Assembly: GCA_964503265.1 (NCBI GenBank)
Contig: CAZCYO010000004.1
Location: 82,098 to 146,097 of the forward strand
DNA length: 64,000 nucleotides
Reading direction: 5' to 3'
Source: an uncultured Gammaproteobacteria bacterium
GTDB taxonomy: Bacteria > Patescibacteriota > Microgenomatia > Levybacterales > UBA12049
A program made the position numbers and the translations under genes. The notes under the pieces were generated by a model. It did not search any database. It was not told the DNA's origin and worked only from the letters and a program-made list of their open reading frames with translations. Positions 1,410 to 40,420 of the stretch are shown here, in pieces (within the stretch, counting starts at the first letter, position 1; each line of letters starts with the position of its first letter).

Positions 1410-2360
1410 TTATAGCTCTCTAGTAGAGAAAAGTGTTCTCGAAGGAGCAATTTGCTGTTTAGCTAGATGTGGGTCCACTGAAAAAAGCGAGTCAGGAGCC
1501 ATCTGATTTCGAACGAGCTGAATACCACAGGTAAGAAGTCTCGCATCCATACCAGGCGTATTATGCCATGCTGTTATCATTTTTTGTTTTTTTAGTTCTT
1601 CAAATCCAGGCAAAAAATACAATCGTTTTGCCCTATCTTCACTTTTTACTCGAGTAATCGTTTGTGCGACTAGCATACCACCATCATGACTAAGAACATC
1701 CCACATCTGTTGGAGTATATATCCATGGACGTTGGGATTTTCAGTAATATACTGTAGTCCACCATCTGCTGCCGACATAACCAGACTAAATCCAGTATGT
1801 ATTTCTTGTTGGCGCATTACTTCCTGCACTCTTCCCCACGTTGACGGAAGTAACACGTCCCCTTCAACCATATGAATATTCTTTGCTGCATCATCTTCTT
1901 TTTGTTCAGAAGATCTTCCGTCATACATCCCTACTGCAATTCCAGGTGCTACGAGTGACCGAATTGCAGAGGGATCGGCACCCACGTCAAGCACATATGG
2001 TGTTATCCCTTTTTTTCGACGTTGCTCAACAAACCGCTGCAAGGTTAACTCAGGAAGTCCTAACTCATCATCATACTGAAACGCCTTTCGACCATAATGC
2101 TTCCATTGAGATTTGTGTTCTTGGGAAAATCTCATTTCTTCTTCACGCCCACGCACGTTTTCTCTGACTTGCTGAAGCATCTTACTGACACCTGGCGCAC
2201 CTTGTTCTATGTGAATCATTTGAGCGAATAATACTGCTATTTGGATCGAATGTAAAGATACAAAGCCATAAGACTTGACGAGTAGACTTAATGTTGAAAT
2301 ACTTACACTATGGAAAAAGAAATATCCCCTATAACAGCTATCGCTACAGAGAATAACCAA
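1410..2360 (-). CDS. Hypothetical protein, possible class I SAM-dependent methyltransferase fold
   Basis: The ORF carries a motif-I-like stretch (ITPYVLDVGADPSA) followed by acidic-loop motifs. The true start is probably an internal Met (about 2216), because the annotated N-terminus overlaps the divergent gene that starts at 2310. Confidence 0.3.
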   Translation of the reverse strand: MVILCSDSCYRGYFFFHSVSISTLSLLVKSYGFVSLHSIQIAVLFAQMIHIEQGAPGVSKMLQQVRENVRGREEEMRFSQEHKSQWKHYGRKAFQYDDELGLPELTLQRFVEQRRKKGITPYVLDVGADPSAIRSLVAPGIAVGMYDGRSSEQKEDDAAKNIHMVEGDVLLPSTWGRVQEVMRQQEIHTGFSLVMSAADGGLQYITENPNVHGYILQQMWDVLSHDGGMLVAQTITRVKSEDRAKRLYFLPGFEELKKQKMITAWHNTPGMDARLLTCGIQLVRNQMAPDSLFSVDPHLAKQQIAPSRTLFSTREL

Positions 2361-3296
2361 CCAGAATTATTCATATATGGTTCGTTTGGAAAAAGGATTC
2401 TTGCCCTTATTATCGATGGACTGATTATCTTCTTTGCGACAGGATTGCTCAGTATTCTCATTAGCCTTATTAGTAACGGCCATGATATAACAAGCCAGAC
2501 GATTCATATAGTTCTTCAATTAGCTCTCTATATCATGGCACCGATTTATATGGTGTATTTTCTCTATCACTACGGTGCGACCCCAGGGAAAATGGCGCTT
2601 CATTTAAAAGTAATAAGCACATCACCTGATAAACCTTCTGTCGGAAGACTCATCCTCCGTGAAGTTATTGGGAAATTTTTATCACGATTTTTTGGCGATG
2701 TCGGATTTCTCTGGGCACTATTTGATGAGAAACGACAGACATGGCACGATCACATTGCGTCCACAGTGGTCATCAATACAAAAGCAGTCACAAAAGACGA
2801 ATACGACGCGTGGCTTGCAAAACAAAAAAGCTATCTCCCTCATGTTCTTCTTACAACAGCAATTTTCCCACTGCTCGCAGGACTTGCGGTATACGGACTA
2901 TCACGGACACCGCTTACCCCATTTCTTATGACCTACTTTAAGGATGTAAACACTATCATTATGATCATTCTTATCTTTTGTATCACATCATCATTTATCC
3001 ATACATTAACATCGATATTACTGTTTAATAAACAAACCTATTCTCCATTTCTGAAAGGAACACCAATGAAAGTTGGTGTAGGAGTATATATCGGAATGCA
3101 AATAGCGACATTTCTAGCAATTGTTCTTATTAGCATTTATGGCGTTGTGTTATATACGAAGAATCCATATATTTTGCCAGTGCAACCTCAAATGATAACG
3201 CCGACCGATACCTATTTTAACTTTGAACAAGACACATCGCCTCGCATGATGAATAAGATTAAACCAACCTCCTCTCCTAACATAAAATCGACCTAA
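2310..3296 (+). CDS. RDD family membrane protein
   Basis: RDD-domain hallmarks: the N-terminal TM segments, YHYGATPGKMALHLKV, and EKRQTWHDHIASTVVI. There is an extra C-terminal TM region. Confidence 0.55.
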   Translation: MEKEISPITAIATENNQPELFIYGSFGKRILALIIDGLIIFFATGLLSILISLISNGHDITSQTIHIVLQLALYIMAPIYMVYFLYHYGATPGKMALHLKVISTSPDKPSVGRLILREVIGKFLSRFFGDVGFLWALFDEKRQTWHDHIASTVVINTKAVTKDEYDAWLAKQKSYLPHVLLTTAIFPLLAGLAVYGLSRTPLTPFLMTYFKDVNTIIMIILIFCITSSFIHTLTSILLFNKQTYSPFLKGTPMKVGVGVYIGMQIATFLAIVLISIYGVVLYTKNPYILPVQPQMITPTDTYFNFEQDTSPRMMNKIKPTSSPNIKST

Positions 3297-3317: not shown

Positions 3318-4193
3318 GTGAAAAAAATCATCTTCCTAAGCGTTTTGTTTATTACTCTTTTTTTCCCAGCGAAACTATTTGCACATGCAGAAGAATCTGC
3401 TTTTGTAACCGTCAATGGTGAACTCGCGCAAACTAATCCCTACTATCAAGGGACATCGAGTATCAACGTTCCCCAAGATATTCTTAAAACACAGTTTCTC
3501 CCCCAGGAACAAATCACGTTTGCCATTGATTCATCAAAGCTCTCCATTCCCCAATCGATTATTTCACAAGGAGAATTTACGTGGCTATTTTTTGAGGGAG
3601 AAAATTTTCTTTCCCAAATTGGAGAAGTTGAAAAAGGAACAACTATTACACACACGTTTACTAAACCAGGCTCATATCTTGTGAATGTGTATTTTACATA
3701 CGAAAATGATCCACAACTATTTGATACTATCCAACTTAATGTCCTTCCATATAAAGGATATGTCTCACCATCAGCCCACGTAAACATTAATCAAGTTGAG
3801 AACACGGTATATTATCTATCTAACCCGAATGTCGATCCAAAGAATTCTGTACTATCTTCTTTTTGGGATTTAGGGGATGGAACTATTATAAAAGGAACAA
3901 ATCAATCACTTCCTCACACATATGAGGTAAGTAGCTTTGTAACATACGTGTACCACCGGGTCATTGATGAAAATAATCTCAGCACCGATGTTGGATTCCA
4001 GGTACAAGGAATTAATGGTAAGATTTCATTTGTTCCTTTTCCAAATGACACGACTACCCCATTTACGCTCTCTATCACAAAAGCACCATATACATTTATT
4101 CCAGACAGTATTCTCGTATGGAGTGTTTCACTAGGTATCGTTCTCCTCCTTATCTTTATCTTTCTGAAATATAAAATTCGTGTTGTTCGATAA
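3318..4193 (+). CDS. Secreted PKD-domain protein with C-terminal TM anchor
   Basis: It has a signal peptide (…KLFA/HAEE) and a PKD-like motif (FWDLGDGTIIKGTNQSLPHTYE). A C-terminal hydrophobic helix is followed by a basic tail (KYKIRVVR). Confidence 0.5.
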   Translation: MKKIIFLSVLFITLFFPAKLFAHAEESAFVTVNGELAQTNPYYQGTSSINVPQDILKTQFLPQEQITFAIDSSKLSIPQSIISQGEFTWLFFEGENFLSQIGEVEKGTTITHTFTKPGSYLVNVYFTYENDPQLFDTIQLNVLPYKGYVSPSAHVNINQVENTVYYLSNPNVDPKNSVLSSFWDLGDGTIIKGTNQSLPHTYEVSSFVTYVYHRVIDENNLSTDVGFQVQGINGKISFVPFPNDTTTPFTLSITKAPYTFIPDSILVWSVSLGIVLLLIFIFLKYKIRVVR

Positions 4194-4201
4194 TATGCGA
4201 A

Positions 4202-4235
4202 AAAGGAGACGAAAGGTACGTCTCCTTTTATTTAA
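4202..4235. terminator. Bidirectional rho-independent terminator between convergent genes
   Basis: Hairpin aaggagacg-aaaggta-cgtctcctt. It has a T-run on the + strand and an A-run on the - strand. It lies between the stop at 4193 and the stop of the minus-strand gene at 4256. Confidence 0.5.
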
Positions 4236-4255: not shown

Positions 4256-4903
4256 CTACACTCTTTTCCGCAACTGTATTCCAATTGAGAGAACAGATAA
4301 TACAAGTGCTAGCATAGTTAATGATTGCCATGCTCGATCTGTATGAATTTCGTTTTTTTGTGTTGTAACAACTGCTGCTGCATTTGCTAAGTCGTTAATA
4401 ACTTTCGTCGTTGAGTAAGGCATAACTTTTTCACTGTCTGAATCAGTTGGTTCCTGATCCCATGACACGACATCTCCATTCTGATACGTTTGGTATGCTT
4501 TCCAAATGAGTGTACTTTCAGACGCTGGAACTTGAGCGCTAAAGACGAAATCGTCACGTTGTCCAGGTGGGATAGTTCCACCAGACCAATCGATCTGAGT
4601 AACTTTCGCTGAATCTCCTTCTCCACTTTTCTTAATCGTAATCGTCCATCCTGGTTTCACATTTGGTGAAACATAATTAAGTCCCTCAGGAATAATAAGT
4701 TTCACAAAAACAGTCGGAGTATCTTTTTCATTTGGCACACCCACACTAAATGTTTGAAATGCACCAACACCAACTGATGTAGGTTTTACAACTACGTGAG
4801 CAAATGCTGGAACAAAAGATACGAGTAGTCCAACAACACTTACGACTCCTGTTTGAAAAAATTTTATTAATACGTGTTTCATATTATATCCACCTCCTTT
4901 CAC
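4256..4903 (-). CDS. YcnI-like (DUF1775) secreted copper-associated protein with C-terminal TM anchor
   Basis: A signal peptide ends …PAFA and is followed by an N-terminal His (HVVVKPTSVGVGAFQTFSVGVPNE…LIIPEGL…VKPGWT). This matches the DUF1775/YcnI pattern. There is a C-terminal TM helix plus an RKRV tail. Confidence 0.5.
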   Translation of the reverse strand: MKGGGYNMKHVLIKFFQTGVVSVVGLLVSFVPAFAHVVVKPTSVGVGAFQTFSVGVPNEKDTPTVFVKLIIPEGLNYVSPNVKPGWTITIKKSGEGDSAKVTQIDWSGGTIPPGQRDDFVFSAQVPASESTLIWKAYQTYQNGDVVSWDQEPTDSDSEKVMPYSTTKVINDLANAAAVVTTQKNEIHTDRAWQSLTMLALVLSVLSIGIQLRKRV

Positions 4904-4968
4904 TACTTGTCATTCTGAACCAAGTAAATAACCTTTACAAGATCATTCGATACATATCGATCAGAACA

Positions 4969-5511
4969 CTACACTTTTTTTGTAACGGATTTCTTATTGT
5001 GTCTTTTTTCTCTCATCACAAGCCATATTAATATGATAAATCCTATCACAAATATCCCGTAATGCACGATATGATAGATTATTGTTGCACCAAGAGATGT
5101 CGTTTGACGTGGTGAAGCACTTTCCCTGTCTACTCTTACTACATATGATAACGTGAATGGATTAAAACGGTGGCTTATCGAAGCACCAGTAACACGTATT
5201 GTATAAACCCCTCTCTCAGGAAATACAAAGGTAACTACTGGAGTTGTGTTAAGTGTGGTTTTATATATCGTATTAGCATTTGAATCAATAGCTACTGTAC
5301 ATATGCAATCAGCAAGTGAGAATATATGGGAAGTATCTTTAAATTCAAAGAAAAACGAACTATCTTCTTTTGCAACTGGATCATCATCAGGATCTACATG
5401 AAGGACTGCACCAATCGTTCCATCTGCTTGCAGCACATGCGCTAATACGGGCATGGTAACAAATATCCAACTAAACGCAATTATGAGAAATATTACTACA
5501 AAATGTTTCAT
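4969..5511 (-). CDS. Secreted hypothetical protein with N-terminal His after signal cleavage and C-terminal TM anchor
   Basis: Signal peptide …PVLA, then HVLQADGTIGAVLHVDPDDDP. A C-terminal TM is followed by a basic tail. It is co-located with the YcnI-like gene. Confidence 0.4.
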   Translation of the reverse strand: MKHFVVIFLIIAFSWIFVTMPVLAHVLQADGTIGAVLHVDPDDDPVAKEDSSFFFEFKDTSHIFSLADCICTVAIDSNANTIYKTTLNTTPVVTFVFPERGVYTIRVTGASISHRFNPFTLSYVVRVDRESASPRQTTSLGATIIYHIVHYGIFVIGFIILIWLVMREKRHNKKSVTKKV

Positions 5512-5538
5512 TCCAGATGTAATGTAAAATCCATACTG

Positions 5539-7104
5539 TTACTTGTCAACTTTCACCGTAAAATCAGCGAGTATAAGTGTACCATCAGGATTGAATTGTG
5601 CAAAGACTCGGTACGTCCCAGCTGTAAACGGACCATAGATACCAATGGGTAAAAAATCTACAACCGGCCCCCCAGTTGCTGTTTCAGGCAGAATAGTCAG
5701 GTTACTTGGATGCACATGCATATAGCTATAATCTTCTTTTCGAATCATAACAAGATGTCCCAGTGCGCCCAGATATGGTGTTATATTCGTTACAGACTTT
5801 TTCGTTTTCGTATCAGTAAGTGTGAATGAAATTGTTTGCTGCCCGACAGACATCAAACGAGCACTGAGTTTTCCGTGTGTATTAATAGCAATAGTGTATG
5901 GACCCACCTCTTTCGTTTGTGCTGTATCTTCTTTTGCACTAACTAGTTGCTCATCGCCAGTAACAGATATGGTAAATCCTATTTGCTGTTCAATTCCTCC
6001 ATATGGCTGAAAATCCAAATACATATGATAGATGCCACTGTGAGGAAATTGTGTTGTGATAGTAAATCCATTATCTTGTTGTGTTGGGTGAACATGAGAA
6101 AAATAACGAAGACTACTATCAACAATCACGAGATGTGCTATTTTTGTATATACCGTTTTAAATGCTCCAACGGGATTTCCGGTTGCAGCGTTAAAGACAC
6201 TAAAGACAAGTACGGTATCCTCGTTAGGATTAATTTGATCTGGCTTTGATAGACTGACAGTATATCGAAGAGAACGATCACCATCTAACCCAGGAATTGT
6301 ACTCGATGATTGTGGATTTTGTGATTGAGCTTCTTGTGCCAGTCTAATATGCGCTGAGTGAATTCCAAATGACACGTGTCCGTTCTGGACAGAATACATT
6401 GGATTAATAACAAACAGTAATACAAAAAGTAAACTACCAAGGGTTATCGAAGTTATAAGTCCAAGTTGAATTCCAAATCCATATGACTCTTTAAGAAAGA
6501 AATCCATCCGTTTTGCATTAAGGAACAGCAGAAATGAGACGGCCAAAAATAACACTTCAGATGGTATCCCAGATACGTCAGTAAAGTGCGTTCCTAGCAT
6601 CAATACGTGAATAAGTACAAATACACCTCCCACATATGTCAGCCGGTGCAGCAATTTCCAGTTAGTAAAGCCCAGTGTGCGAACAGCCAAATCAACAGAA
6701 GTCAGCGTAAGGATAACTAAGATACTAAGACTGATGCACCCAAGCAGTAAGGCAATTACGTACGAGTTACTTAAGTACGCAATTCCAGAAAACCCCTTGA
6801 GTTGCTCAAAAAATGTCACATACGTATGGAGTATTGCAAAATAACATGAAGATACACCAATCGCTCGTCGCATATGCTTCCATATCTCGCCGCCACTAAC
6901 GCGTGGGAATTGATAGAAAAATGGGCCAATCAGTAAAGAAATATAGAGATACATTATACTTGCCAGTCCACACAACTGTTCAAAGCGAATATTTTGTAAT
7001 ATACCAACTGGAATATAGAAGTAGGAATATAGTGCAAACAGGAGAGACAAAAGTACACTACTTATCAGAACATACAAGCGACTGTTACGAAAAAGCCCAG
7101 ACAT
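5539..7104 (-). CDS. Membrane protein: ferric-reductase-like TM domain fused to two extracytoplasmic Ig-like HxHP-motif domains
   Basis: The N-terminal half has 6 TM segments with conserved His residues (AILHTYVTFF; WKLLHRLTYVGGVFVLIHVLMLG), resembling the YedZ/MsrQ ferric reductase domain. The C-terminal half has two similar domains, each ending in a (L/I)xHL(V/I)h…SY(F/M)(S/H)VHP motif. Confidence 0.45.
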   Translation of the reverse strand: MSGLFRNSRLYVLISSVLLSLLFALYSYFYIPVGILQNIRFEQLCGLASIMYLYISLLIGPFFYQFPRVSGGEIWKHMRRAIGVSSCYFAILHTYVTFFEQLKGFSGIAYLSNSYVIALLLGCISLSILVILTLTSVDLAVRTLGFTNWKLLHRLTYVGGVFVLIHVLMLGTHFTDVSGIPSEVLFLAVSFLLFLNAKRMDFFLKESYGFGIQLGLITSITLGSLLFVLLFVINPMYSVQNGHVSFGIHSAHIRLAQEAQSQNPQSSSTIPGLDGDRSLRYTVSLSKPDQINPNEDTVLVFSVFNAATGNPVGAFKTVYTKIAHLVIVDSSLRYFSHVHPTQQDNGFTITTQFPHSGIYHMYLDFQPYGGIEQQIGFTISVTGDEQLVSAKEDTAQTKEVGPYTIAINTHGKLSARLMSVGQQTISFTLTDTKTKKSVTNITPYLGALGHLVMIRKEDYSYMHVHPSNLTILPETATGGPVVDFLPIGIYGPFTAGTYRVFAQFNPDGTLILADFTVKVDK

Positions 7105-7138: not shown

Positions 7139-7804
7139 TCACACTGCTCGGGGGTGGTTATATGGCAAAAGGAATAAACTACCAAGTAATCCAAAAGATA
7201 GTCCTAACAGACCTCCTCCAATCACATCCGTTGCCCAATGTTCACCTAAATAAACACGCGAGATTACCATAATAGCTGTATATCCACATAGCAGCGCCGT
7301 AATTATCGTTTTCCAAAGAATTGATAATCTGGGAGAATTCCAAACCACAACCAGGATGAGTGAAAGAAGAAACATCGTTCGTCCACTGTGTCCTGATGGA
7401 TATGAAAAATCTGCACTAACATAAAATTGCGGCATATCGACAGGATGGACAGTTCTAAGCATAAACTGTGGTGGTGGTGGATGATTAACAAAATATTTTC
7501 CAAATATTTCAATTAAGTGAAATATACCAAATAATCCAAAAGAAATAATTCCAAGTAGCTTTCGCTGAAAGATGAGAAATAATACGAGCACGATAACCAT
7601 CACTTCAAAATTCCCAAAAAGACTAAAGAGTGAAAAAAGGTCATCTACCCTTCTTGACAGAAAGTCTTGCAGACGTACGGTGGTATTAAAATCAAATTGG
7701 GTGAGCTTATCTTTATGAACGAGGTAAGAGAAAAGAAGAAAAGAGAAAAATGCTAGAGTACTTGTTAAAAAGATAATGATCCGCTCCTTTGTAACAAAGT
7801 TCAT
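7139..7804 (-). CDS. PAP2-family phosphatase (undecaprenyl-/phosphatidic-acid phosphatase-like)
   Basis: PAP2 signature motifs are present: SYPSGHS and SRVYLGEHWATDV. It is a multi-TM protein. Confidence 0.65.
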   Translation of the reverse strand: MNFVTKERIIIFLTSTLAFFSFLLFSYLVHKDKLTQFDFNTTVRLQDFLSRRVDDLFSLFSLFGNFEVMVIVLVLFLIFQRKLLGIISFGLFGIFHLIEIFGKYFVNHPPPPQFMLRTVHPVDMPQFYVSADFSYPSGHSGRTMFLLSLILVVVWNSPRLSILWKTIITALLCGYTAIMVISRVYLGEHWATDVIGGGLLGLSFGLLGSLFLLPYNHPRAV

Positions 7805-7871: not shown

Positions 7872-8765
7872 CTATATTTTGAGGCTTTTGAGGTATTCAC
7901 GGAAATGTTCGCCTACTTCACCATGGTCCATACCAAATTCAACGACTGTTTTTAAATATTCAAGCTTATTTCCTGTATCATAATATCGTCCACCTTTAAT
8001 TTCTGCTGCTAGCACATGTTTTTTATCTTCGATCATCAGTTTTAGTGCATCATTATAGTAAAGCTCTTTTCCATCTTCAAGAGTTTCGTTTGCTCGATCG
8101 AGATAGTCAAAAATATCCGGATTAAATACAAACCCACTCACATTGGCAAGATCTGAAGGAGCGTTATCTTTCCCAGGTTTCTCAACGATCGATTCTACAT
8201 CAATAATCCCATCTCGCAGTTCCTGGCCCGCTGCAAATCCATATCGATCATAATCTTCTGGTTTGGTCGCTTTAATACTTGCGAGTACTGGCCAACCAAA
8301 TTCTTCATACACTTCAATAAGTTGTTTAAAGCGAGACTGTGGTTCTGCTTTAATAAAATCATCGCTCCACGTATAAATAAATGGTTCGTCTCCGATAATT
8401 TGCCGAACATTCAGTAGTGGGGTCCCATTTCCATATGGTCCTTTTTGCCTTACATAGACAAAATTAGCCATATTTCCGACAGCTTCTGTGAGTTCAATAA
8501 GTGGTTTTTTCTTTTCCCCACCCATTCGGAGATTTTCGATAAGTTCAAGTGAAGGACGATCGAAATGATCCTCGATCGAACGTTTGTGGTATCCAGTCAC
8601 GATAATGATATCTTCAATACCAGCATCAACTAATTCCTCGACAATGTACTGGATGATAGGCTTATCGACAACTGGAAGCATTTCCTTCGGCATAGCCTTG
8701 GTTTGTGGGAGAAATCGAGTGCCAAATCCGGCAGCTGGAATGACTGCTTTTCTAATTTTCTTCAT
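7872..8765 (-). CDS. galU: UTP--glucose-1-phosphate uridylyltransferase
   Basis: The N-terminus KAVIPAAGFGTRFLPQTKAMPKEMLPVVDKPIIQYIVEE is a classic GalU signature, and the 297-aa length fits. Confidence 0.85.
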   Translation of the reverse strand: MKKIRKAVIPAAGFGTRFLPQTKAMPKEMLPVVDKPIIQYIVEELVDAGIEDIIIVTGYHKRSIEDHFDRPSLELIENLRMGGEKKKPLIELTEAVGNMANFVYVRQKGPYGNGTPLLNVRQIIGDEPFIYTWSDDFIKAEPQSRFKQLIEVYEEFGWPVLASIKATKPEDYDRYGFAAGQELRDGIIDVESIVEKPGKDNAPSDLANVSGFVFNPDIFDYLDRANETLEDGKELYYNDALKLMIEDKKHVLAAEIKGGRYYDTGNKLEYLKTVVEFGMDHGEVGEHFREYLKSLKI

Positions 8766-8864
8766 GAATAACGCAATTATATAAGAAGAGCTTTCTGATT
8801 TGCAATATGTTTACAAAAATCTTGCATTGTCTACGGACGATCTGGTTTAATAATACTACGTACC

Positions 8865-11765
8865 ATGGATAATCCACAGGCTGATTTACATACTAGTGAG
8901 AATGAAGAAAAAATTGTTTTGGCTAAACCTCCTATTCCAACTCGTTTTGGAACCATAAAAGAAAAAGTTACATCTCTATCAAAAAATAGATCTCTCCAGC
9001 TTGGTCTGGGTTTATTACTTGTTGCAACTGTTCCATTTACGATCCTTCAAAGCTTTAAACAACAAGATATTCAACAACATGCTGCAGCTACTACTGGATA
9101 CGATATGGCAACTTGGAAACTTCCAGAATTTACAACACTTGAACAGCTTGAGACCGAACTAAGCAAATCTGTAGATGGTGGACAGTATCCAATTGGACTT
9201 GATGATTATCTTAAATGTCCGGTAGCAGCACCCTATCATGATACCAGTAACCCTGGAAGAACAAGCGATTGTGACCAAAAAGGTGTTATTTGGGGAAATC
9301 CGGCTATCCCTCCAGGAACGCTTAACCAAGAAGAGGCTCATTGTAAGGCAAATCAATATGCTGGTGGACCTAACGGAGGGGGGGCATGTGAAAATGACAC
9401 AACCCCAAATGATCCATGGTATTTTTTCGGAACTGTCGGAGATAGTACGAGCACAAATGATATTTTCTACACTGTTGGTCAAGCGAATTATGAGGCAAGG
9501 CTTGCAGGAAGTTGTATTTTTAGATCAGCTCATTGCCGAGATCGTGGATGTATGTATTATGCAGTTGATGGCCCAGATGATACATGGGCCGGAGGATGGC
9601 ATTATCAGAGAAGTAAAGATAGTGCATGTTGGGGCATAAGTACATGGTCTTGTGCCCGAAGTGGCTGGTCACGTGCGATGGGATGGGCCCAAACACGATG
9701 GAGACAGTATGCTGAAAAGAAGACTCCAGGCTGGTCATCTGGAAAACCTTTCACCGTATTTCCAGATCGACGGTGTATCTTATCACTCGCCGTCATGGAA
9801 GTTCGATCTGAATGTAAACGAGCTGAAAATGGTGAATGTGGTGAAGGTAGTGATAAAAACGTCGCAAATGTAGGGTTTTTCCTTGACCCTACCACCCCCC
9901 GTTCTGCTGGAGGGTCTTCAAAGGCTGTTGCGTTAGTTATGCAAACCGCAGCATCAGATAAATCATCGTGTGAAAAGACCGATACACATTTTACTGATTT
10001 AACCCCAGGTGATAGTTGTCTAGAAAAAGCAGTCACAGCACTTAGCACTTCGACAGGCACCTCTCCTGCGTGTACGGCTCGTGGCTATGGTGGGGGTATA
10101 TTCGCACCTGCCAACCCAGTAACTCGCGAAGAATTCCTCGCGTTTATCACGAGATATCATGTCTATGTAGCAAAGGACTGGAAATATATCGATGTCTCAA
10201 GTACGACAGATCTTCCTGATAGTAAGCTTTACTCTGATGTCCCCAGAAACCACCCCCAAGCACTTAACATTTACACAGCAGCGCTGAAAGGATTTACTGA
10301 TACAGACGTTGGGAAAGAGTATAAACCAGCCGACCCATGGAACTGGAAATGGAGTGCAAGCAGTGGCATTGACAAAGTTGACAAGGCAGCACAGGCTTCT
10401 ATAACGAGAGGTGAGGTCGTTGTCGGGCTATATAACTATGGTATTGGGAAGCAACAACTTACAGGTGTAGCATGTAATGCTGTGGCAGCGACTGCAGAAA
10501 AACCACCTGCTCCATTTACAGAAGGTGTCGACCAAGAGGATGAAGCTAAAGCTGCTGCCCGAAGAGCAGTATGTGGAAAAAATGATAGTAATCCGACGAC
10601 AGAATCGTCTCTTCTCAATGGATTTATTGTCAGCGCCCCAACAGTTACTGCTTTTAACGATAGAATCTTACTTTTCGCCAAAGGCAAAGAAAATAAACTA
10701 TATATGCGAACATTTGGTGTTAGTAAAGGAAGAATTACCGATTTAGCAAGTAGTCCTTGGATTGATTTAGGAAAAACAGTAAATAATACTCCAATAACAG
10801 CCTATACCAACACGTCAAAAACACTCTTTGTAATCGTAACAGGTGCGGATGGGAAACTATATTCACGCTCAACCAAAACAGGTACTACGCTTTCTGACTG
10901 GAGTGACTGGACCAACTCTATTCCTGAAGGATATATTCCTGGAAAGGCAGATACGGACGGTATTGCTGTTCTTGACCAATTTACATATAGCTTTACCAAA
11001 GGAATTGGAGATTCTGTGCCAAATAATGTATGTCTTTCTTTCATTGCTGCTCCTGGATTTGTGAGTGGTGGATCAGGAGCAGTCCCAGGAGGTGGAGGAA
11101 GTCAGCCAGCAACTCCCGCACCAAAAGTACCGACGATTACACCGGCTAATCCGTCAACGACATATGTTATCGGCGGTGCATACTATGAAGTTCCTCCATT
11201 CCCAGATGATCTTACATTCTACGCAAAACCAATTCCACCTACGACCTTTACTCCTGATCCAGTAAAAGCAAAAGGACAAGTGTTTCAGTTTCTCAAAGTT
11301 CCAGCCGGAACATATCGAATATATGCAGAGACAGTGCCAAACTTTTTGCAAACATTGCCTCCTACCACAAACGATGTAAATACGAATTATAGCTATGTTG
11401 TAACTGCAGGTCCTGGTTGCACGATAAGTCCTAAGCGTGAGAAGAACGGAGACAAAACAGAATGTGTTTCTAGTGAAAATCCATCCGGGCTTGTGTTCGA
11501 ATTCGACCCAGCAAATACTGATCCAGCTTCTGCCTTTAATTCATGTGTTAATACCTGTCAAAATGACGGTGATGGAGTAAAGACAAGGGATTACTGTGAA
11601 ACAGTTATTTGTAAAGACAAATTACCTCAATCCTCACTTGCACAGCGAACCGCCGAAAACCAGCCTAATTTACTTCAGCAAATGGGATCAGGCGTAGTGG
11701 GTCTCGTTACAACTGTTGTTACAGCTGCTGGTGACGTATTCCACGCAGTAAACCCATTTGACTAA
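8865..11765 (+). CDS. Large cell-surface protein: N-terminal TM anchor with KQQDIQQHAA motif, Cys-rich domain, SLH-like module
   Basis: TM helix followed by the conserved motif FKQQDIQQHAA. There is a Cys-rich region of ~250 aa. An SLH-like segment reads ARGYGGGIFAPANPVTREEFLAFITRYH. Confidence 0.5.
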   Translation: MDNPQADLHTSENEEKIVLAKPPIPTRFGTIKEKVTSLSKNRSLQLGLGLLLVATVPFTILQSFKQQDIQQHAAATTGYDMATWKLPEFTTLEQLETELSKSVDGGQYPIGLDDYLKCPVAAPYHDTSNPGRTSDCDQKGVIWGNPAIPPGTLNQEEAHCKANQYAGGPNGGGACENDTTPNDPWYFFGTVGDSTSTNDIFYTVGQANYEARLAGSCIFRSAHCRDRGCMYYAVDGPDDTWAGGWHYQRSKDSACWGISTWSCARSGWSRAMGWAQTRWRQYAEKKTPGWSSGKPFTVFPDRRCILSLAVMEVRSECKRAENGECGEGSDKNVANVGFFLDPTTPRSAGGSSKAVALVMQTAASDKSSCEKTDTHFTDLTPGDSCLEKAVTALSTSTGTSPACTARGYGGGIFAPANPVTREEFLAFITRYHVYVAKDWKYIDVSSTTDLPDSKLYSDVPRNHPQALNIYTAALKGFTDTDVGKEYKPADPWNWKWSASSGIDKVDKAAQASITRGEVVVGLYNYGIGKQQLTGVACNAVAATAEKPPAPFTEGVDQEDEAKAAARRAVCGKNDSNPTTESSLLNGFIVSAPTVTAFNDRILLFAKGKENKLYMRTFGVSKGRITDLASSPWIDLGKTVNNTPITAYTNTSKTLFVIVTGADGKLYSRSTKTGTTLSDWSDWTNSIPEGYIPGKADTDGIAVLDQFTYSFTKGIGDSVPNNVCLSFIAAPGFVSGGSGAVPGGGGSQPATPAPKVPTITPANPSTTYVIGGAYYEVPPFPDDLTFYAKPIPPTTFTPDPVKAKGQVFQFLKVPAGTYRIYAETVPNFLQTLPPTTNDVNTNYSYVVTAGPGCTISPKREKNGDKTECVSSENPSGLVFEFDPANTDPASAFNSCVNTCQNDGDGVKTRDYCETVICKDKLPQSSLAQRTAENQPNLLQQMGSGVVGLVTTVVTAAGDVFHAVNPFD

Positions 11766-13965: not shown

Positions 13966-14937
13966 ATGCGATTTCTTAGTAAATTTCATCCTAAGTTTTT
14001 ATCTCTCATCGTAACTGGTTTTGTGGTTTTAGGACTACCACTTATGGTATTCGTGTCCAGTCAAAAACAAGATAATAGACAACACGCATCAGCTGCGTGT
14101 GTTCCCACTCCTGCTACTCTAACAGCATATACTCCTACTACTTCCTGTGGAACAGATCTCTTTCGATATGTAAAATTTGGTTGTTCAAATGGATACAGTG
14201 GTAGTTTAGGCAGTGATACAAGCTGCAAATCAACAGCAGAATGGAAAAACTATGCATATGAAGAATGTACTAAACAAACTGTCTGTGTTGAACCTACACC
14301 AATAAATTATTGTCCGACTGTAACTGCGAGTACGATATTCGGTGGAAAATCATGCGGAACGAATTTATATGATAGTGTTTCCTATACCTGTAGTGACGGG
14401 TATAAAGGCTATTTTGGAGGCGATACGAGTTGCAAAACCTGGGAGACATGGATTGGGTATGCTCAAAAAGATTGTGCGAGTAGAACAGTATGTAGCTACC
14501 CAACTGCAATGCCAACTCCAATTTCAACGACAATGCCATACCCGACCTCCCTGCCAACCACGATGCCATACCCTACGACTGTCATGACACCAAAACCTAC
14601 ACTCGCTATGCTAACGGGCACATGGATGAAGGCTACACCGTATTCAGCGAAAATCACAGTAAAAGCTGGTGTTTATACGCCTATAAAAGCATTTACTATC
14701 CAGAACGTTTCGGGAAAACCTTCGTTCTGGGCAACAGCCTCGTTAAGTTTGGATAAGCCAGAAAGTTCTCGATTTATTATTATTGATGGTGCTTCACTTT
14801 TTATAAGTACAACTGGTGTTCCAGTAAATATTAAAGCGACAAGCTCTGCAACAGCTGGAGTCTACAGTGGATTTGTAAGTATAAAAAATAGCTACGAACA
14901 GATAACTCTCCCCGTTGAAGTGATAGTGACAAAATAA
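13966..14937 (+). CDS. Secreted protein with TM anchor, KQDNRQHAS motif and two tandem Cys-rich ~75-aa repeats
   Basis: N-terminal TM plus SQKQDNRQHASAA. The tandem repeats are CGTDLFRYVKFGCSNGYSGSLGSDTSCKS…C…C and CGTNLYDSVSYTCSDGYKGYFGGDTSCKT…C…C. A Pro/Thr linker follows. Confidence 0.45.
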   Translation: MRFLSKFHPKFLSLIVTGFVVLGLPLMVFVSSQKQDNRQHASAACVPTPATLTAYTPTTSCGTDLFRYVKFGCSNGYSGSLGSDTSCKSTAEWKNYAYEECTKQTVCVEPTPINYCPTVTASTIFGGKSCGTNLYDSVSYTCSDGYKGYFGGDTSCKTWETWIGYAQKDCASRTVCSYPTAMPTPISTTMPYPTSLPTTMPYPTTVMTPKPTLAMLTGTWMKATPYSAKITVKAGVYTPIKAFTIQNVSGKPSFWATASLSLDKPESSRFIIIDGASLFISTTGVPVNIKATSSATAGVYSGFVSIKNSYEQITLPVEVIVTK

Positions 14938-15029: not shown

Positions 15030-17093
15030 ATGTACGTATTAATGAGTAATAAAAGACGATTATTAACCATAATAGTAATTATATTCCTCATTCTGTCACT
15101 CCCAACAATTATGTATGTCATTAGCACCCGACAAGATATCCGCCAACGAGCTTCGGAGAACGTTTCACTTAATCCAGCATTTGGAAAAACCTGTGAAGTG
15201 AATGATATTGACACATTAATATCTTGTTTTGGGAGATTATATTATGGAAACGACCAAGTGGACGTCATTAAGTTCACGGCTATGGTTAACTGTAATGAAT
15301 TAGATAATTGCGAGGTGTCAATACCAAGTATCCGTCGCCCAGTGCTCATATATGGAGATCCGGGAACAGAAGTAGGGATAAAAAGCACAGGTACCAATAG
15401 CTTACACGTTTTTAGTATCACAAATTCTGATAATGTTGATATTAAAAATATTCAGATAATCGGAAATGGTGAGCCCTGTCCAGAAAATAGATCCTGTTCC
15501 AACGGGTTGACCATCGGAGATTCAACTAATATACGAATCGATAATGTCACGGTCAGAAATGCTAAAAGAGGAATAGGTGTGTATTATTCGGACAAGGTTA
15601 CTATTACGAATAGTACTATCACGAATAATGATCAAGAAGGGATTCATGTCCATTCAGCAACAGATACTAATTTGCTCACTCCAACTTCTGGAACAGTATT
15701 TATTGAAAATAATATCATTTCTGATAACAGGAGATATGGCATATTTATTGAAGGCATCTACCCGAGCATTTCTCCAAGTCACATTTCAGGAAACATATTA
15801 GATCATAACCATACAAAAACATATCCAGGATATTGTATATCAGATACACTAACCGCATGTGGGGGTGGCCAAATTACGATCAAAAACTATACTTCGAATA
15901 TCGTTATCGAGAATAACATCATTCGAAATGGAAGTCTTACAACAAGTATTCTCGATACAGGTGTTTCAGGAATTGAATTAGGAAATCGTACTATTCAAAA
16001 TATACAAATACGTTCAAATGATATTCACGATAATAGCTTTTGGGGAATCAGCTCCTATGAAAATACCGACAACATGACAAATAATACAATCCAAGATAAT
16101 CGTATTTATAATAATGCTAAAGGTACACTCTTACCCTCATTCTCCCAACAAGCCAATAACTGTACGACATCCTCATGCCCGGCACCAACTATCACTGGGA
16201 CTATCTCGCCAACTACAAATTTCACTTCCATTAACGCTACTGGTCAATGTCAAACAACCATTTCCTGGTCAACAAACGCTTCTACAGCAAGTATTTATAG
16301 AGAAGAAAATCTTCTTTCAAATACAACAACAGGCTCTCAATTATTGTCAACAATTCCACCAGGAAAAACACGCTTTGATCTCCTATCGGGAACCATTGAT
16401 AAATCTCGGCTCGCAAGTACTGTCGTATACTGTTTTGCAAGCCCTTCAGTAGTAGCTTCAAATGCGCCTTCAAATTCACCAACTCAGGTACCACTACCAA
16501 CAGTCACGCCGACAGTAACACAACCTCTCCCAACACCTACGCTTATTCAAACACTCACACCTGCTAAAGGAACATTTTCACTTTCTGTCATCCTTCATGG
16601 TATTGGAAATAACGGAGACAATACAAATAAAACAGGAGGAAACCTTACACCTCGAACTACAACTCGAACTGTTTCTGTTGAGTTAACTAATACAGAAGGA
16701 TCTGTACTTCCAGCGTTTCCTTCACAAATCACCTACCAATCAGCTACTCAAAAGTTCGTTGGGGAAGCGAGAATTCCTCAGACTATTCCTAATGGTACAT
16801 ATTCCATACGAATAAAAAGCTCTGGATATCTATCTTCACGCATATCAGGATTCGTTACTATCACCGATAATACAGTGCTCACGTTACCAGTGACTACACT
16901 AACCGTAGGAGACACATTTGTGGATAATAAACTCGACATTTTGGATTTTAATATCATTATGACATGCTGGATCACTTCAGAAGTCTGCTCTCCAGAACAA
17001 AAAATACTTTCAGATCTAGACGATGATGGAAATGTCACCGCTATAGATGACAACCTTTTTATTCGAGAAATAACGATTCAACGTGGTTATTAA
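15030..17093 (+). CDS. Surface protein: TM anchor + RQDIRQRAS motif, right-handed parallel beta-helix (PbH1) repeats, dockerin-like C-terminus
   Basis: Repeated NxxIxNNxI(x)G beta-helix rungs (…VDIKNIQIIGNG…IRIDNVTVRNAKRGIGV…ITNSTITNNDQEGIHV…). The C-terminus, LDILDFNII…DLDDDGNVTAIDDNLFIRE, resembles two dockerin Ca-binding repeats. Confidence 0.55.
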   Translation: MYVLMSNKRRLLTIIVIIFLILSLPTIMYVISTRQDIRQRASENVSLNPAFGKTCEVNDIDTLISCFGRLYYGNDQVDVIKFTAMVNCNELDNCEVSIPSIRRPVLIYGDPGTEVGIKSTGTNSLHVFSITNSDNVDIKNIQIIGNGEPCPENRSCSNGLTIGDSTNIRIDNVTVRNAKRGIGVYYSDKVTITNSTITNNDQEGIHVHSATDTNLLTPTSGTVFIENNIISDNRRYGIFIEGIYPSISPSHISGNILDHNHTKTYPGYCISDTLTACGGGQITIKNYTSNIVIENNIIRNGSLTTSILDTGVSGIELGNRTIQNIQIRSNDIHDNSFWGISSYENTDNMTNNTIQDNRIYNNAKGTLLPSFSQQANNCTTSSCPAPTITGTISPTTNFTSINATGQCQTTISWSTNASTASIYREENLLSNTTTGSQLLSTIPPGKTRFDLLSGTIDKSRLASTVVYCFASPSVVASNAPSNSPTQVPLPTVTPTVTQPLPTPTLIQTLTPAKGTFSLSVILHGIGNNGDNTNKTGGNLTPRTTTRTVSVELTNTEGSVLPAFPSQITYQSATQKFVGEARIPQTIPNGTYSIRIKSSGYLSSRISGFVTITDNTVLTLPVTTLTVGDTFVDNKLDILDFNIIMTCWITSEVCSPEQKILSDLDDDGNVTAIDDNLFIREITIQRGY

Positions 17094-38047: not shown

Positions 38048-38296
38048 TTACTCGCTTTTCTGTTGGATACCTAGAAGCCAGAGGACGGCTTCTTTTTTGT
38101 AGCGGCGGTCGCCACGACTGTTGATGCGAATGGCTGGAAGCTTACCCCGTTTCCCCCATCTCTTAATAGTTAATGGTGACACTCGGAGCACTTCTGCAAC
38201 CTCGCGAACGGTTAATAGATCTGGTAAGTCTTGTATTGATATCTTTTGATCAGCCATAGCCTTGGGACTAGATATTAGTTGTCTATAAGGTAACAA
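38048..38296 (-). CDS. Helix-turn-helix DNA-binding protein, excisionase/MerR-like (HTH_17) family
   Basis: LLTVREVAEVLRVSPLTIKRWGKRGKLPAIRINSRGDRRYKKEAV matches the excisionase-family HTH pattern. It is a paralogue of the 53827 gene. Confidence 0.55.
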   Translation of the reverse strand: MLPYRQLISSPKAMADQKISIQDLPDLLTVREVAEVLRVSPLTIKRWGKRGKLPAIRINSRGDRRYKKEAVLWLLGIQQKSE

Positions 38297-38859
38297 AGTG
38301 GAACAAAGTTGTCAATGAGGAAAACGTATTTCTTCTCGTTTTTGAGAGAAGAAAGCGAATTTTTAATTTGAAATTTTACATTTTTAATCAAATCTACTTA
38401 TGTTACTTTTTAAACTTTGATTTCAAATTTCAAATTAGAAATTGAATAGTAAGGAAAGGTGTGTTTCCGGGAGACAGATCGGTTGGTGGCGTTTAAATGG
38501 GGCGCAATTCGCCCCACAAATACGTCAGTGGCGAAGCCACTTTCCAAATCCGTCTCCCGGTTACGCTTCCCCTAGGTGGGGCTACTTACAGTCTTCGCAT
38601 CTGATTGATCAGGCTCGCCAGGTTGAGGAACCGTCCGCTCCAAGATAGGCACAGGACCCGGGTCGAAGTCTTCGTGATAGGGTCCATCATGGAACCCTGG
38701 AAGATCTCGAACGGTCATACGCTTAGCTGACACAGCGTCAACCAGTTGCTGTTGAGCACGAGCTGGCCGGTTGGTATCCATAGCATCCTCCATCCGTGAT
38801 GACGTGGGACTTCGTTGTCCCGACGTGCCACATCTCTGTGGCGAAGATCAGATCAGAGG

Positions 38860-39285
38860 CTACTTGATGACCTGCCATGGCCGATCTGGCACTGGCATGA
38901 TCACCGGCAGGTGTTGCCGGGGGTCCGTCAAGCTGCGAATAACAGGCGCTGGGAATTCTCCCAACGGTCGCCTGGGAACAGACGTGAACGAAACGGCAGC
39001 ACTTGGTCCGACAGGGCTTCCCCCACCGTCAAAGGCCTGAATGTGCCCTTCTTTGCCGTCAATAACCAGCAGGTACTCACCTGAATCAGGAATTTCGACT
39101 GTTGCGACAGTCGTACTCCCGATAAGGTAATCAACCCGCCTCACACTCGAGATAACACGGCGGACCACAAGGTCATGTGGACTTTTCCGAACCGGAAGTA
39201 CCACAATGCCCCGAGCTTCAACCGACCGTGTCTGTCCTTCAGATTGAAGTGTGCGCACTACAAGTGCGCATACGACAGTATCCAT
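38860..39285 (-). CDS. Hypothetical protein (GC-rich island), 142 aa
   Basis: Start chosen at MDTVVCALV…, preceded by a GGAGGA RBS. The track ORF is longer. It shares a …LLVIDGK… core with the upstream gene. Confidence 0.3.
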   Translation of the reverse strand: MDTVVCALVVRTLQSEGQTRSVEARGIVVLPVRKSPHDLVVRRVISSVRRVDYLIGSTTVATVEIPDSGEYLLVIDGKEGHIQAFDGGGSPVGPSAAVSFTSVPRRPLGEFPAPVIRSLTDPRQHLPVIMPVPDRPWQVIK

Positions 39286-39367
39286 GATTCCTCCAGATAT
39301 ATGAACATTCAATTGGAGACACCATTGTCTCCTCAAGTCACAGCATCGTGAAGAAGTGGACACTACA

Positions 39368-39951
39368 CTAGGGAACGATGATCGGGAATGCCAATGCCTG
39401 GACTGGGGGCTGAGCGCCCTCGAGATACAGCCAGTACATATCATCCCCATCTTCGGACTCTTCGTAGATGACGCCGATCTCCTGATCGGTGTCGCCGTCG
39501 GTGATGATGAGATCTTCGAGATCTCCCAAGACATGGTAGTGCGGATCGAAATTGATCCTCGTCTGCAGAAGAGCACGCCGGGCGCGCCGTTCCTGACCTT
39601 GGGCCTTGTTGCGCTTTTCGCGCTTCTTCAAATTCTGGTGGGTACCAACCGTGAGCTTGCGACTCACAGATTCCCCGTCCTCCGGCGTGAAGATCACAGT
39701 GATATTCACCGGACCACTCATCGGAATGGGAATAGGCGTCGCCACCCGATGGTTAGACCGAGGGTCAACCATGTCATCGAAGAAGGTCTTCCCGTCGATC
39801 ACGACGAGGGCGTTAGACGGCACACGTGCGGCATTCCGCAGGAGGAGAAAGTGGTTATGGCCATTGTTGTTAGCCACGATACCACAGACACCATTCTGGG
39901 ACGTCCGAACTTCGACCGGCTTGTTGCCACGAAGAACAACAACATACATGA
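39368..39951 (-). CDS. Hypothetical protein (GC-rich island), 194 aa with basic linker and acidic C-terminus
   Basis: Start chosen at MYVVVLRGNKPVEV…, preceded by a GGAGGG RBS. Overlapping ORFs in other frames reflect the high GC content. Confidence 0.35.
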
Positions 39952-40420
39952 GATATTCCCTCCAGAGTAGTCGTGAGGCGCAACTGCGCCTCTTCCGATG
40001 CCACCATGTGCGAGAAATAGATCGTAAGTCTCCTTTCACTAATTGTGTTGTTTAACTGGTGGCTAAAGAGAAAGAAACACCATTTCCTCCCCCATAGCCA
40101 CCAGTCATAATAAATATAAGTAGTAACGTTGCATGAGTAAAAAGAGAGAGAGATTTGTTCGATAACGCATTTGCTATCGAAAAATGATTCCACCTATTCT
40201 GCTCAATACACCGTTAAAGCGTATTGTTAAGGTACAAAAAAAGATACAAAACTGTATCTGTAAGGATATTGTAAGAAATAAGCACGAAGATGTCAACTAT
40301 AGGTTTACTGATGAGGCTGAGAGAAGGTTGTTAGATAGAAGATAGGAGGTAAAAGATAGAAAGGAATACCGCTTATTTACTCCTAGAGCTAACTACCCTC
40401 TACTAACTGCTAGCTACTGA

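Follow-up and report, generated by a model that had tools for sequence, protein, structure and literature searches.

The 64-kb window described here (the whole stretch of 64,000 nucleotides that was analysed, positions 82,098 to 146,097 of contig CAZCYO010000004.1) carries a conserved four-gene cluster. On balance, we think it probable that this cluster encodes a copper relay tethered to the outer face of the cell membrane and driven by a transmembrane cupric reductase. Three co-oriented genes on the minus strand at 4256-7104 were verified, with exactly the coordinates and strand given in an earlier reading of the sequence (hereafter the original prediction). In the direction of transcription, they encode protein C (521 residues; 5539-7104), a protein of the flavocytochrome b type with seven transmembrane (TM) helices and two extracytoplasmic domains containing an HxHP motif; protein B (180 residues; 4969-5511), with a signal peptide, a beta-sandwich and a C-terminal TM anchor; and a YcnI-like DUF1775 protein (208 residues; 4256-4882). 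The fourth gene had been overlooked. It lies on the plus strand (3318-4193) and encodes a 291-residue protein with two PKD domains (the PKD protein).

Conservation of the cluster was assessed in a sample of 84 loci, obtained by a scan of species-representative genomes and by contig look-ups. The gene encoding B was directly downstream of C and on the same strand in 61 to 64 of these loci. YcnI came next after B, also on the same strand, in 52 to 54 loci; many of the loci without B or YcnI were on truncated contigs. The PKD gene adjoined the cluster in 37 to 39 loci, and the gene order C-B-YcnI(-PKD) was kept in about 60 genomes. This conserved synteny bears out the earlier proposal that the three minus-strand genes encode a functional unit and enlarges it by one member: C, B, YcnI and PKD form one conserved four-gene unit. 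Two other neighbours were considered and rejected as members, since PAP2 (7139-7804) and RDD (2310-3296) were next to C in just two and one of the 84 loci, respectively. In this genome, C and B are separated by 27 bp and B and the ATG of YcnI by about 86 bp, and the PKD gene is convergent to the other three. A bidirectional intrinsic-terminator hairpin (AAAAA-GGAGACG-aaaggta-CGTCTCC-TTTTATTT), read off the sequence at 4200-4233, sits between the stop codon of YcnI and the PKD gene. A promoter scan gave nothing beyond the expectation from shuffled sequences, and no operon start was assigned; an Rfam scan of the window revealed no riboswitch or RNA gene.

The hosts of the cluster were overwhelmingly Patescibacteria (Candidate Phyla Radiation, CPR), namely Curtiss-, Levyi-, Davies-, Woese- and Woykebacteria and Saccharimonadales. 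Of the cluster-bearing records, about half are titled 'uncultured Gammaproteobacteria'. Their copies are 40-49% identical to those in metagenome-assembled genomes labelled Microgenomates, and the titles look like defaults or errors.

Protein C matched the Ferric_reduct profile at 37.1 bits (cutoff 28). Hydropathy and an AlphaFold2 model (pLDDT 83.4) both gave seven TM helices with the N-terminus inside, that is, the six-helix core that had been predicted plus a seventh helix that had been missed. Since there are seven helices and the N-terminus is inside, the C-terminal domains are placed outside the cell. The core and TM7 span residues 1-235 (6400-7104). Within this part, H93 and H166 were invariant among the 29 sequences aligned from 76 close homologues, while R79, R80 and W149 were conserved in at least 90% and H153 in 26 of the 29. 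All six residues are spaced identically to the haem ligands His91 and His164 and the FMN-pocket residues Arg77, Arg78, Trp147 and His151 of MsrQ (PMC12525009). In the YedZ/STEAP clade, an Arg replaces the first haem His of TM3 and three His remain (PMC3591440); C has the same arrangement (R80-x12-H93 and H153-x12-H166). The family profile of C retrieved STEAP2 (E 2.8e-5) and STEAP1 by sequence, and the closest solved folds were the metalloreductases STEAP4 and STEAP1, so that its fold, too, is that of the single-haem clade. The intact haem- and flavin-pocket residues and these fold matches agree well with the YedZ/MsrQ-type haem-binding domain of the original prediction. From its conserved residues, C is predicted to hold one outer haem b (H93 and H166) and one inner flavin (R79, R80, W149 and H153). 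With such a layout, a soluble flavin reductase could supply the electrons, and no quinones would be needed. This matters because Patescibacteria are essentially without respiratory chains: any oxygen reductase was found in 3 of 492 single amplified genomes (PMC7507113).

We rejected C as an orthologue of MsrQ. It scored 36.3 bits against the equivalog NF003831 (cutoff 130), and no MsrP-like neighbour recurs. The NCBIfam search with C gave far-sub-threshold matches to MsrQ and MamZ only.

The outer part of C begins with a linker modelled at low confidence (residues 236-279; 6268-6399), which contains the motif G-I-H-x-x-H with an invariant H249 and with H252 conserved in at least 90% of the sequences. 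It is followed by a beta-sandwich, HxHP domain 1 (residues 280-385; 5950-6267), and by HxHP domain 2 (residues 395-521; 5542-5922). The motif H-x12-H-x-H-P is present in each, and both His triads were invariant in the aligned homologues, so that the two conserved extracytoplasmic HxHP domains described earlier are real features of the family. Also invariant in domain 1, besides the triad H324, H337 and H339, were P340, Y359, Y362, E372 and Q373. The invariant residues of domain 2 were G449, H450, H463 and H465, and P466 was conserved in at least 90%. Domain 2 duplicates domain 1: hhalign aligned them with 97.5% probability (E 8e-12) and with the His triads superimposed. The motif occurred exactly twice per protein in 73 of 76 CPR, 122 of 134 broad-family and 120 of 120 actinobacterial sequences, always with a spacing of 12, against a chance expectation of 0.005 matches per protein in shuffled sequences. 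We refer to the tandem as the HxHPx2 module.

Domain 1 scored 21-22 bits against YtkA (PF13115), or 22.2 bits on the full protein, and the cutoff is 25.9; domain 2 gave no YtkA match. A precomputed PF13115 match exists in a few homologues (P0027, P0073 and P0370). We treat the HxHP domains as a distant relative of YtkA and not as a member. A Foldseek search with the outer part of C returned generic tandem Ig/FN3 folds only; the predicted fold of the HxHP domains is CopC/CrdA-like. Sequence searches placed neither B nor the HxHP domains in CopC, PmoD or YtkA. The earlier label 'YtkA/CopC-like' therefore applies at the level of fold and sub-threshold similarity but does not extend to above-threshold family membership.

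The HxHPx2 module is widespread. An exhaustive search yielded 2,949 clusters at 50% identity with E ≤ 1e-3, and 1,256 with E ≤ 1e-10. The 1,331 actinobacterial relatives were all named 'hypothetical protein' or 'secreted protein' in their sources, and we found no description of the module or of the actinobacterial gene in the literature. Some CPR forms lack the ferric reductase domain (FRD). Their linker is rich in Met and His (MAGMNMAGMMMGG and HTQMQMSEVMQNMPGM) where the fused forms have G-I-H-x-x-H.

The YcnI-like reading frame in its longest form (4256-4903, minus strand, 215 residues) matched DUF1775 (PF07987) at 93.4 bits (cutoff 25). The closest crystal structure was YcnI of Bacillus subtilis (PDB 7me6, E 1.8e-16), with a His of the query aligned to mature residue 1. 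The true start is the ATG at 4882, which has a ribosome-binding site (AAAGGAGGTG) upstream and yields 208 residues; the public gene call concurs. With the start thus corrected, the original assignment to DUF1775/YcnI holds, and we regard it as well founded that the product is a genuine member of the family, judging by its sequence. The copper site of B. subtilis YcnI comprises the N-terminal His27 (amine and imidazole), Glu50 and Trp137 (PMC8424229). H36, E59 and W148 (numbered in the 215-residue frame) align with these. The Ala-His junction and the Glu and Trp of this brace were kept in 52-53 of 53 alignable CPR neighbours, and position -1 was always Ala. A C-terminal anchor is formed by the hydrophobic segment 191-209 and was present in 49 of 52 CPR neighbours. 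The NCBIfam search returned no family for the protein. The mature protein, presumably cleaved before His, is predicted to bind copper.

Protein B reads ...PVLA/HVLQADGTIGAVLHVDPDDDP at its N-terminus, with His25 at the predicted cleavage site (slash). The original prediction described B as a secreted protein with a mature N-terminal His, and that His turned out to be invariant: among 27 homologues, A24, H25, H38, P41, D43, P45, C69 and C71 were all invariant. No Pfam or NCBIfam family was found for B, and phmmer and profile searches against the PDB gave no match. Its best compact fold matches were the copper proteins CrdA, PmoD and CopC. CrdA is a copper-resistance protein of the CopC/PcoC type (PMC9182242), and B has the architecture described for PmoD/AmoD (PMC6189053), namely a signal peptide, a beta-sandwich with two invariant Cys and a C-terminal TM helix.

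Closer assignments of B were rejected. A diverged copy of an HxHP domain was considered, and hhalign gave probabilities of just 17% and 0.8%. There was no Pfam CopC match, and the His1/Asp/His site of CopC is not present. Finally, B has C69-x-C71 without the Cx7MxH...C motif of PmoD/AmoD, and the profile search gave no PmoD match.

Between B and YcnI, about 10 CPR loci (L006, L009, L010, L014, L015, L026, L045, L048, L059 and L012) encode a His-rich membrane protein of some 130 residues with the conserved motif CC(A/L)P ... SPPP. The same motif forms a C-terminal extension of B in other genomes (P0090, P0093, P0097 and P0099). The protein, which belongs to no Pfam family and has no copy in this window, may represent an optional fifth component, perhaps one with a thiol-based Cu(I) site.

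The PKD protein reads LFA/HAEES, with a predicted mature N-terminal His23. It consists of a signal peptide, a conserved N-domain, two PKD domains (PKD_4, 34.6 bits, cutoff 27; PKD, 29.9 bits, cutoff 23.5) and a C-terminal TM anchor, and the NCBIfam search returned no family for it. In about 37 of 40 copies, the N-domain has an Ala-His junction followed by G-x-PPFFKING. In two proteins (P0217 and P0241), the N-terminal-His PKD module is fused to the FRD-HxHPx2 protein in one polypeptide. Cleavage before His in YcnI, B and PKD is predicted from the -3/-1 rule (AFA/H, VLA/H and LFA/H), from the invariance of Ala-His and from the alignment to mature YcnI.

These components suggest the following relay. 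Anchored YcnI, B and PKD would each expose a free N-terminal His after removal of the signal peptide and capture Cu(II), YcnI by its known monohistidine brace and B and PKD by analogous N-terminal-His sites. Cu(II) would then be passed to the His3 domains of C. Reducing equivalents from the cytoplasm would enter C at the flavin pocket (R79, R80, W149 and H153), move on to the single haem near the outer face (H93 and H166), and reach copper bound by the linker HxxH and the two tandem His3 domains. Once reduced, copper would leave the N/O-type Cu(II) sites, so that Cu(I) could be handed to an importer or to exported cuproproteins. We infer all of the chemical steps, that is, the binding of haem and flavin, the direction of electron flow, the Cu(I) acceptor and signal cleavage; copper is likewise the presumed metal at B, PKD and the HxHP domains. 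We lean towards a role in supply rather than tolerance, and by analogy with CopC the module may serve supply in some lineages and tolerance in others. Because Patescibacteria are without haem-copper oxidases, the supply of such oxidases cannot be its role in this host.

Individual steps have precedents. YcnI and YcnJ function in copper acquisition in B. subtilis (PMC12362106, PMC13344008), and YcnI exchanges Cu(II) with the CopC domain of YcnJ, the reduction step having been explicitly left open (PMC12362106). STEAP proteins and Fre1/Fre2 reduce Cu(II) (PMC3591440), and CrpH has been put forward as a cupric reductase with haem in bacteria (PMC13038864).

To identify the metal, we turned to neighbourhoods and fusions. 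In Actinobacteria (Actinophytocola, Actinoplanes, Pseudonocardia and others), the HxHPx2 protein stands alone and is anchored N-terminally. In 13 of 14 such loci, csoR and/or copZ lay just upstream and/or copA just downstream on the same strand; in Actinophytocola glycyrrhizae (L072), the HxHPx2 gene overlaps the start of the gene encoding a P1B-ATPase with two HMA domains. Among CPR loci, csoR/copZ/copA were found beside the cluster in L047, L012 and L048, the first of which reads copA-dsbD2/cupredoxin-copZ-csoR-PKD-C-B-YcnI. In L070 and L025 copA was directly upstream of the cluster, and in L002 genes for a Cu/Zn superoxide dismutase (SOD) and a cupredoxin were beside it. The module also occurs in fusions to Cupredoxin_1, HMBD and above-threshold YtkA domains, and the Met/His-rich linkers of the FRD-less CPR forms are a further indication of copper. 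Iron transporter genes of the FTR1/EfeU/Feo type did not recur in the neighbourhood census. Copper is thus well supported as the metal of the cluster and iron is unlikely, because the YcnI site is intact, copper genes recur and iron transporters do not. Of the two metals offered by the original prediction, Cu or Fe, the first is therefore retained. It had also proposed an acquisition system; an electron-transfer-coupled copper role is supported, but acquisition is not established, and tolerance is a serious alternative, the actinobacterial module being found in CsoR-CopZ-CopA efflux operons.

Directly beside the HxHPx2-copA operon of the A. glycyrrhizae locus, and divergent from it, a gene at 8749-9798 (minus strand) encodes a siderophore-interacting, FAD-binding reductase of the SIP/FAD_binding_9 type. 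Where HxHPx2 occurs without the FRD core, this enzyme might act as a soluble donor of electrons. Near the cluster in eight CPR loci there is a gene for a nickel SOD (HCDIPCG hook; PF09055, 132 bits), another N-terminal-His metalloprotein; in loci including L036, L049 and L020, it is about 4 kb from the cluster and accompanied by an S26-type peptidase.

A Fur-family gene and a ZIP transporter gene lie directly upstream of C in six to eight CPR loci (ZIP in 8 of 67). The pair could be the importer of the product of the system or could reflect co-regulation with zinc/iron uptake. The loci are L013, L016, L018, L029, L043 and L060 (also L002 and L058); the genes are mostly co-directional and sometimes overlap C.

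Several observations weigh against a reductive copper relay. The 64-kb window contains no copA or csoR and no cuproprotein gene beside the cluster, and in the neighbourhood census no dedicated copper importer (CopD or CcoA) recurred near it. The recurrent partners were C, B, PKD and YcnI only; neither a CopD-like polytopic protein nor a regulator recurred. The Fur-ZIP neighbours may point to another metal. The csoR-copZ-copA context of the module suggests induction by copper excess, and under such conditions production of Cu(I) outside the cell seems counter-productive. Lastly, CPR bacteria are not, to our knowledge, known to make haem or quinones.

The CsoR context of the module favours the main alternative, a defence against copper excess, which we consider possible but less likely. 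HxHPx2 would be an outside acceptor or buffer for Cu(I) exported by CopA, and YcnI, B and PKD would sequester Cu(II); the FRD core would merely set the redox state of the sink or take electrons from Cu(I). Consistent with this, the actinobacterial module is flanked by copZ and copA, with csoR upstream, in 13 of the 14 loci, and the CPR loci listed above have csoR/copZ/copA beside the cluster (L047, L012 and L048) or copA immediately upstream of it (L070 and L025). The closest fold, CrdA, is a copper-resistance determinant, and the linkers of the FRD-less forms are rich in Met, as is typical of Cu(I) sites. However, B. subtilis YcnI works in copper acquisition, and all characterised YedZ, STEAP and FRE domains send electrons outwards, i.e. 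they reduce. Oxidation of Cu(I) via haem b would be thermodynamically unfavourable. Moreover, the Fur-ZIP neighbours resemble uptake genes, and most CPR loci, this window included, are without an efflux gene nearby.

The strict invariance of the triads, of Y359/Y362 and of E372/Q373 goes beyond the usual need of a chaperone, and an electron-transfer cofactor that feeds a copper site of three His is an arrangement typical of enzymes. The His3 sites might accordingly be type-2-like catalytic centres, wired via haem and flavin to a cytoplasmic reductant, that reduce extracellular superoxide, O2, nitrite or peroxide, with the N-terminal-His proteins as dedicated metallochaperones. The fusions to cupredoxin domains and the SOD genes near the cluster in several loci fit this idea, as does the need of CPR bacteria, which are without respiratory oxidases, for surface defences. 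Nevertheless, the FRD-less and cupredoxin-less actinobacterial forms keep their triads without an electron supply, the fold searches matched no copper enzyme, and tandem duplication and operon context are metallochaperone-like. We therefore consider a catalytic role improbable. If true, it would mean that respiration-less bacteria possess a stand-alone surface copper oxidoreductase.

More doubtful still is the possibility that C is a ferric reductase serving the uptake of iron or of some other divalent metal, with Fe or Zn bound by the HxHP domains and import by ZIP under Fur/Zur. YcnI is a Cu(II)-specific binder whose site is intact in every locus, and ZIP is present in just the 8 of 67 CPR loci mentioned. 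In addition, the genes that recur are those for CopA, CsoR, CopZ, cupredoxin and Cu/Zn-SOD, not FTR1/EfeU/Feo-type genes, and the module is fused to cupredoxin and HMBD. Finally, C might, like MsrQ in the MsrPQ system, donate electrons to some other repair or redox enzyme outside the cytoplasm, in which case the copper proteins would be neighbours and no more. MsrQ is the best NCBIfam match of C and has the same haem and FMN residues. We nevertheless consider this reading very improbable, given the equivalog score (36 bits against 130), the recurrence of B, YcnI and PKD only, with no molybdoenzyme or soluble redox partner, and the covalent fusion of the HxHP domains to the core.

As a cupric-reductase relay, the cluster would most closely resemble the YcnI-YcnJ pair of B. 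subtilis, in which YcnJ has the composition CopC-CopD-YtkA. Both have an anchored DUF1775 protein with a His/Glu/Trp Cu(II) site, a further beta-sandwich partner with an N-terminal His (in B. subtilis the CopC domain, in the cluster B and PKD) and, on a polytopic membrane protein, outward-facing Ig domains of the YtkA-like type, and in both all of these parts are extracytoplasmic and tethered. Unlike in YcnJ, the membrane core of the cluster is a haem domain of the YedZ/STEAP type in place of CopD. Furthermore, B is not CopC by sequence, the Ig domains belong to a tandem, unnamed H-x12-H-x-H-P family, and there is no adjacent CopC-CopD (YcnJ) importer or YcnK regulator as in the ycnKJI operon. 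The CPR host also has no haem-copper oxidases to supply (PMC7507113).

Compared with its relatives among haem proteins, C lacks the N-terminal NADPH oxidoreductase domain of STEAP2-4 and the MsrP partner of MsrQ; unlike STEAP1-4 and MsrQ, it has the domains that presumably bind its substrate fused to its C-terminal end, outside the cytoplasm and behind the extra helix TM7. B and the HxHP domains differ from CopC, PcoC and CrdA in having no detectable sequence homology with them (no Pfam CopC match and an empty PDB profile search). The ligand sets differ as well: His1, H14, D19 and CxC in B and His3 in HxHP, compared with His1/Asp/His with or without a Met-rich loop in CopC and a Met-rich loop only in CrdA. 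B is also unlike PmoD/AmoD: where PmoD has the Cx7MxH...C motif required for its CuA-like site, B has an adjacent C-x-C and an N-terminal His. Outer-side reduction of Cu(II) by a haem or cluster, feeding copper trafficking, has likewise been proposed for CcoG, CrpH (PepSY_TM) and yeast Fre1/Fre2. However, CcoG is a 4Fe-4S protein and CrpH a two-haem PepSY_TM protein, with folds unrelated to C; their systems supply haem-copper oxidases, of which there are none here, and Fre1/Fre2 have their own NADPH/FAD domain. The parts of the cluster are thus of known kinds, but the combination of a putative haem reductase with HxHPx2 and YcnI has not been described before. In the literature, we found no description of an FRD fused to copper-binding or YtkA-like domains, nor of this cluster in Patescibacteria/CPR.

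The site and mode of Cu(II) reduction in bacterial copper trafficking is an open question, as stated by the authors of the YcnI/YcnJ work. Protein C fuses a STEAP/MsrQ-type conduit to putative copper domains and is genetically locked to YcnI, which makes the reduction step testable on one polypeptide. The HxHPx2 module lies within csoR-copZ-copA operons in cultured actinomycetes (such as Micromonospora, Actinoplanes and Amycolatopsis) and can be studied there without culturing CPR bacteria. B and the PKD N-domain represent two further unnamed families with a predicted N-terminal His, and as such are candidate copper binders of the histidine-brace type. A conserved protein with a predicted haem and flavin in Patescibacteria, which have no respiratory chain, also raises the questions of where haem comes from and what copper is used for.

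Three other features of the window deserve mention. A stretch of about 1.8 kb at 38300-40100 has a GC content of 0.48-0.54, compared with about 0.40 for the genome. Its only reading frames, on either strand, are short and overlap, and Rfam gave no credible match. It adjoins a reading frame for an excisionase-type helix-turn-helix protein (38048-38296, minus strand) and could be a large non-coding RNA or the remnant of a mobile element. The gene at 13966-14937 (plus strand) encodes a secreted protein of 323 residues with two Cys-rich repeats. It scored 31.1 bits against APP_Cu_bd (cutoff 26.4) over the whole protein, no single stretch passing alone; the domain would be unusual for a bacterium. 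Finally, the 687-residue protein encoded at 15030-17093 (plus strand) has a right-handed beta-helix/NosD-like region and a C-terminal dockerin, and belongs to a run of very large secreted surface proteins encoded between 8.8 and 34 kb of the window.

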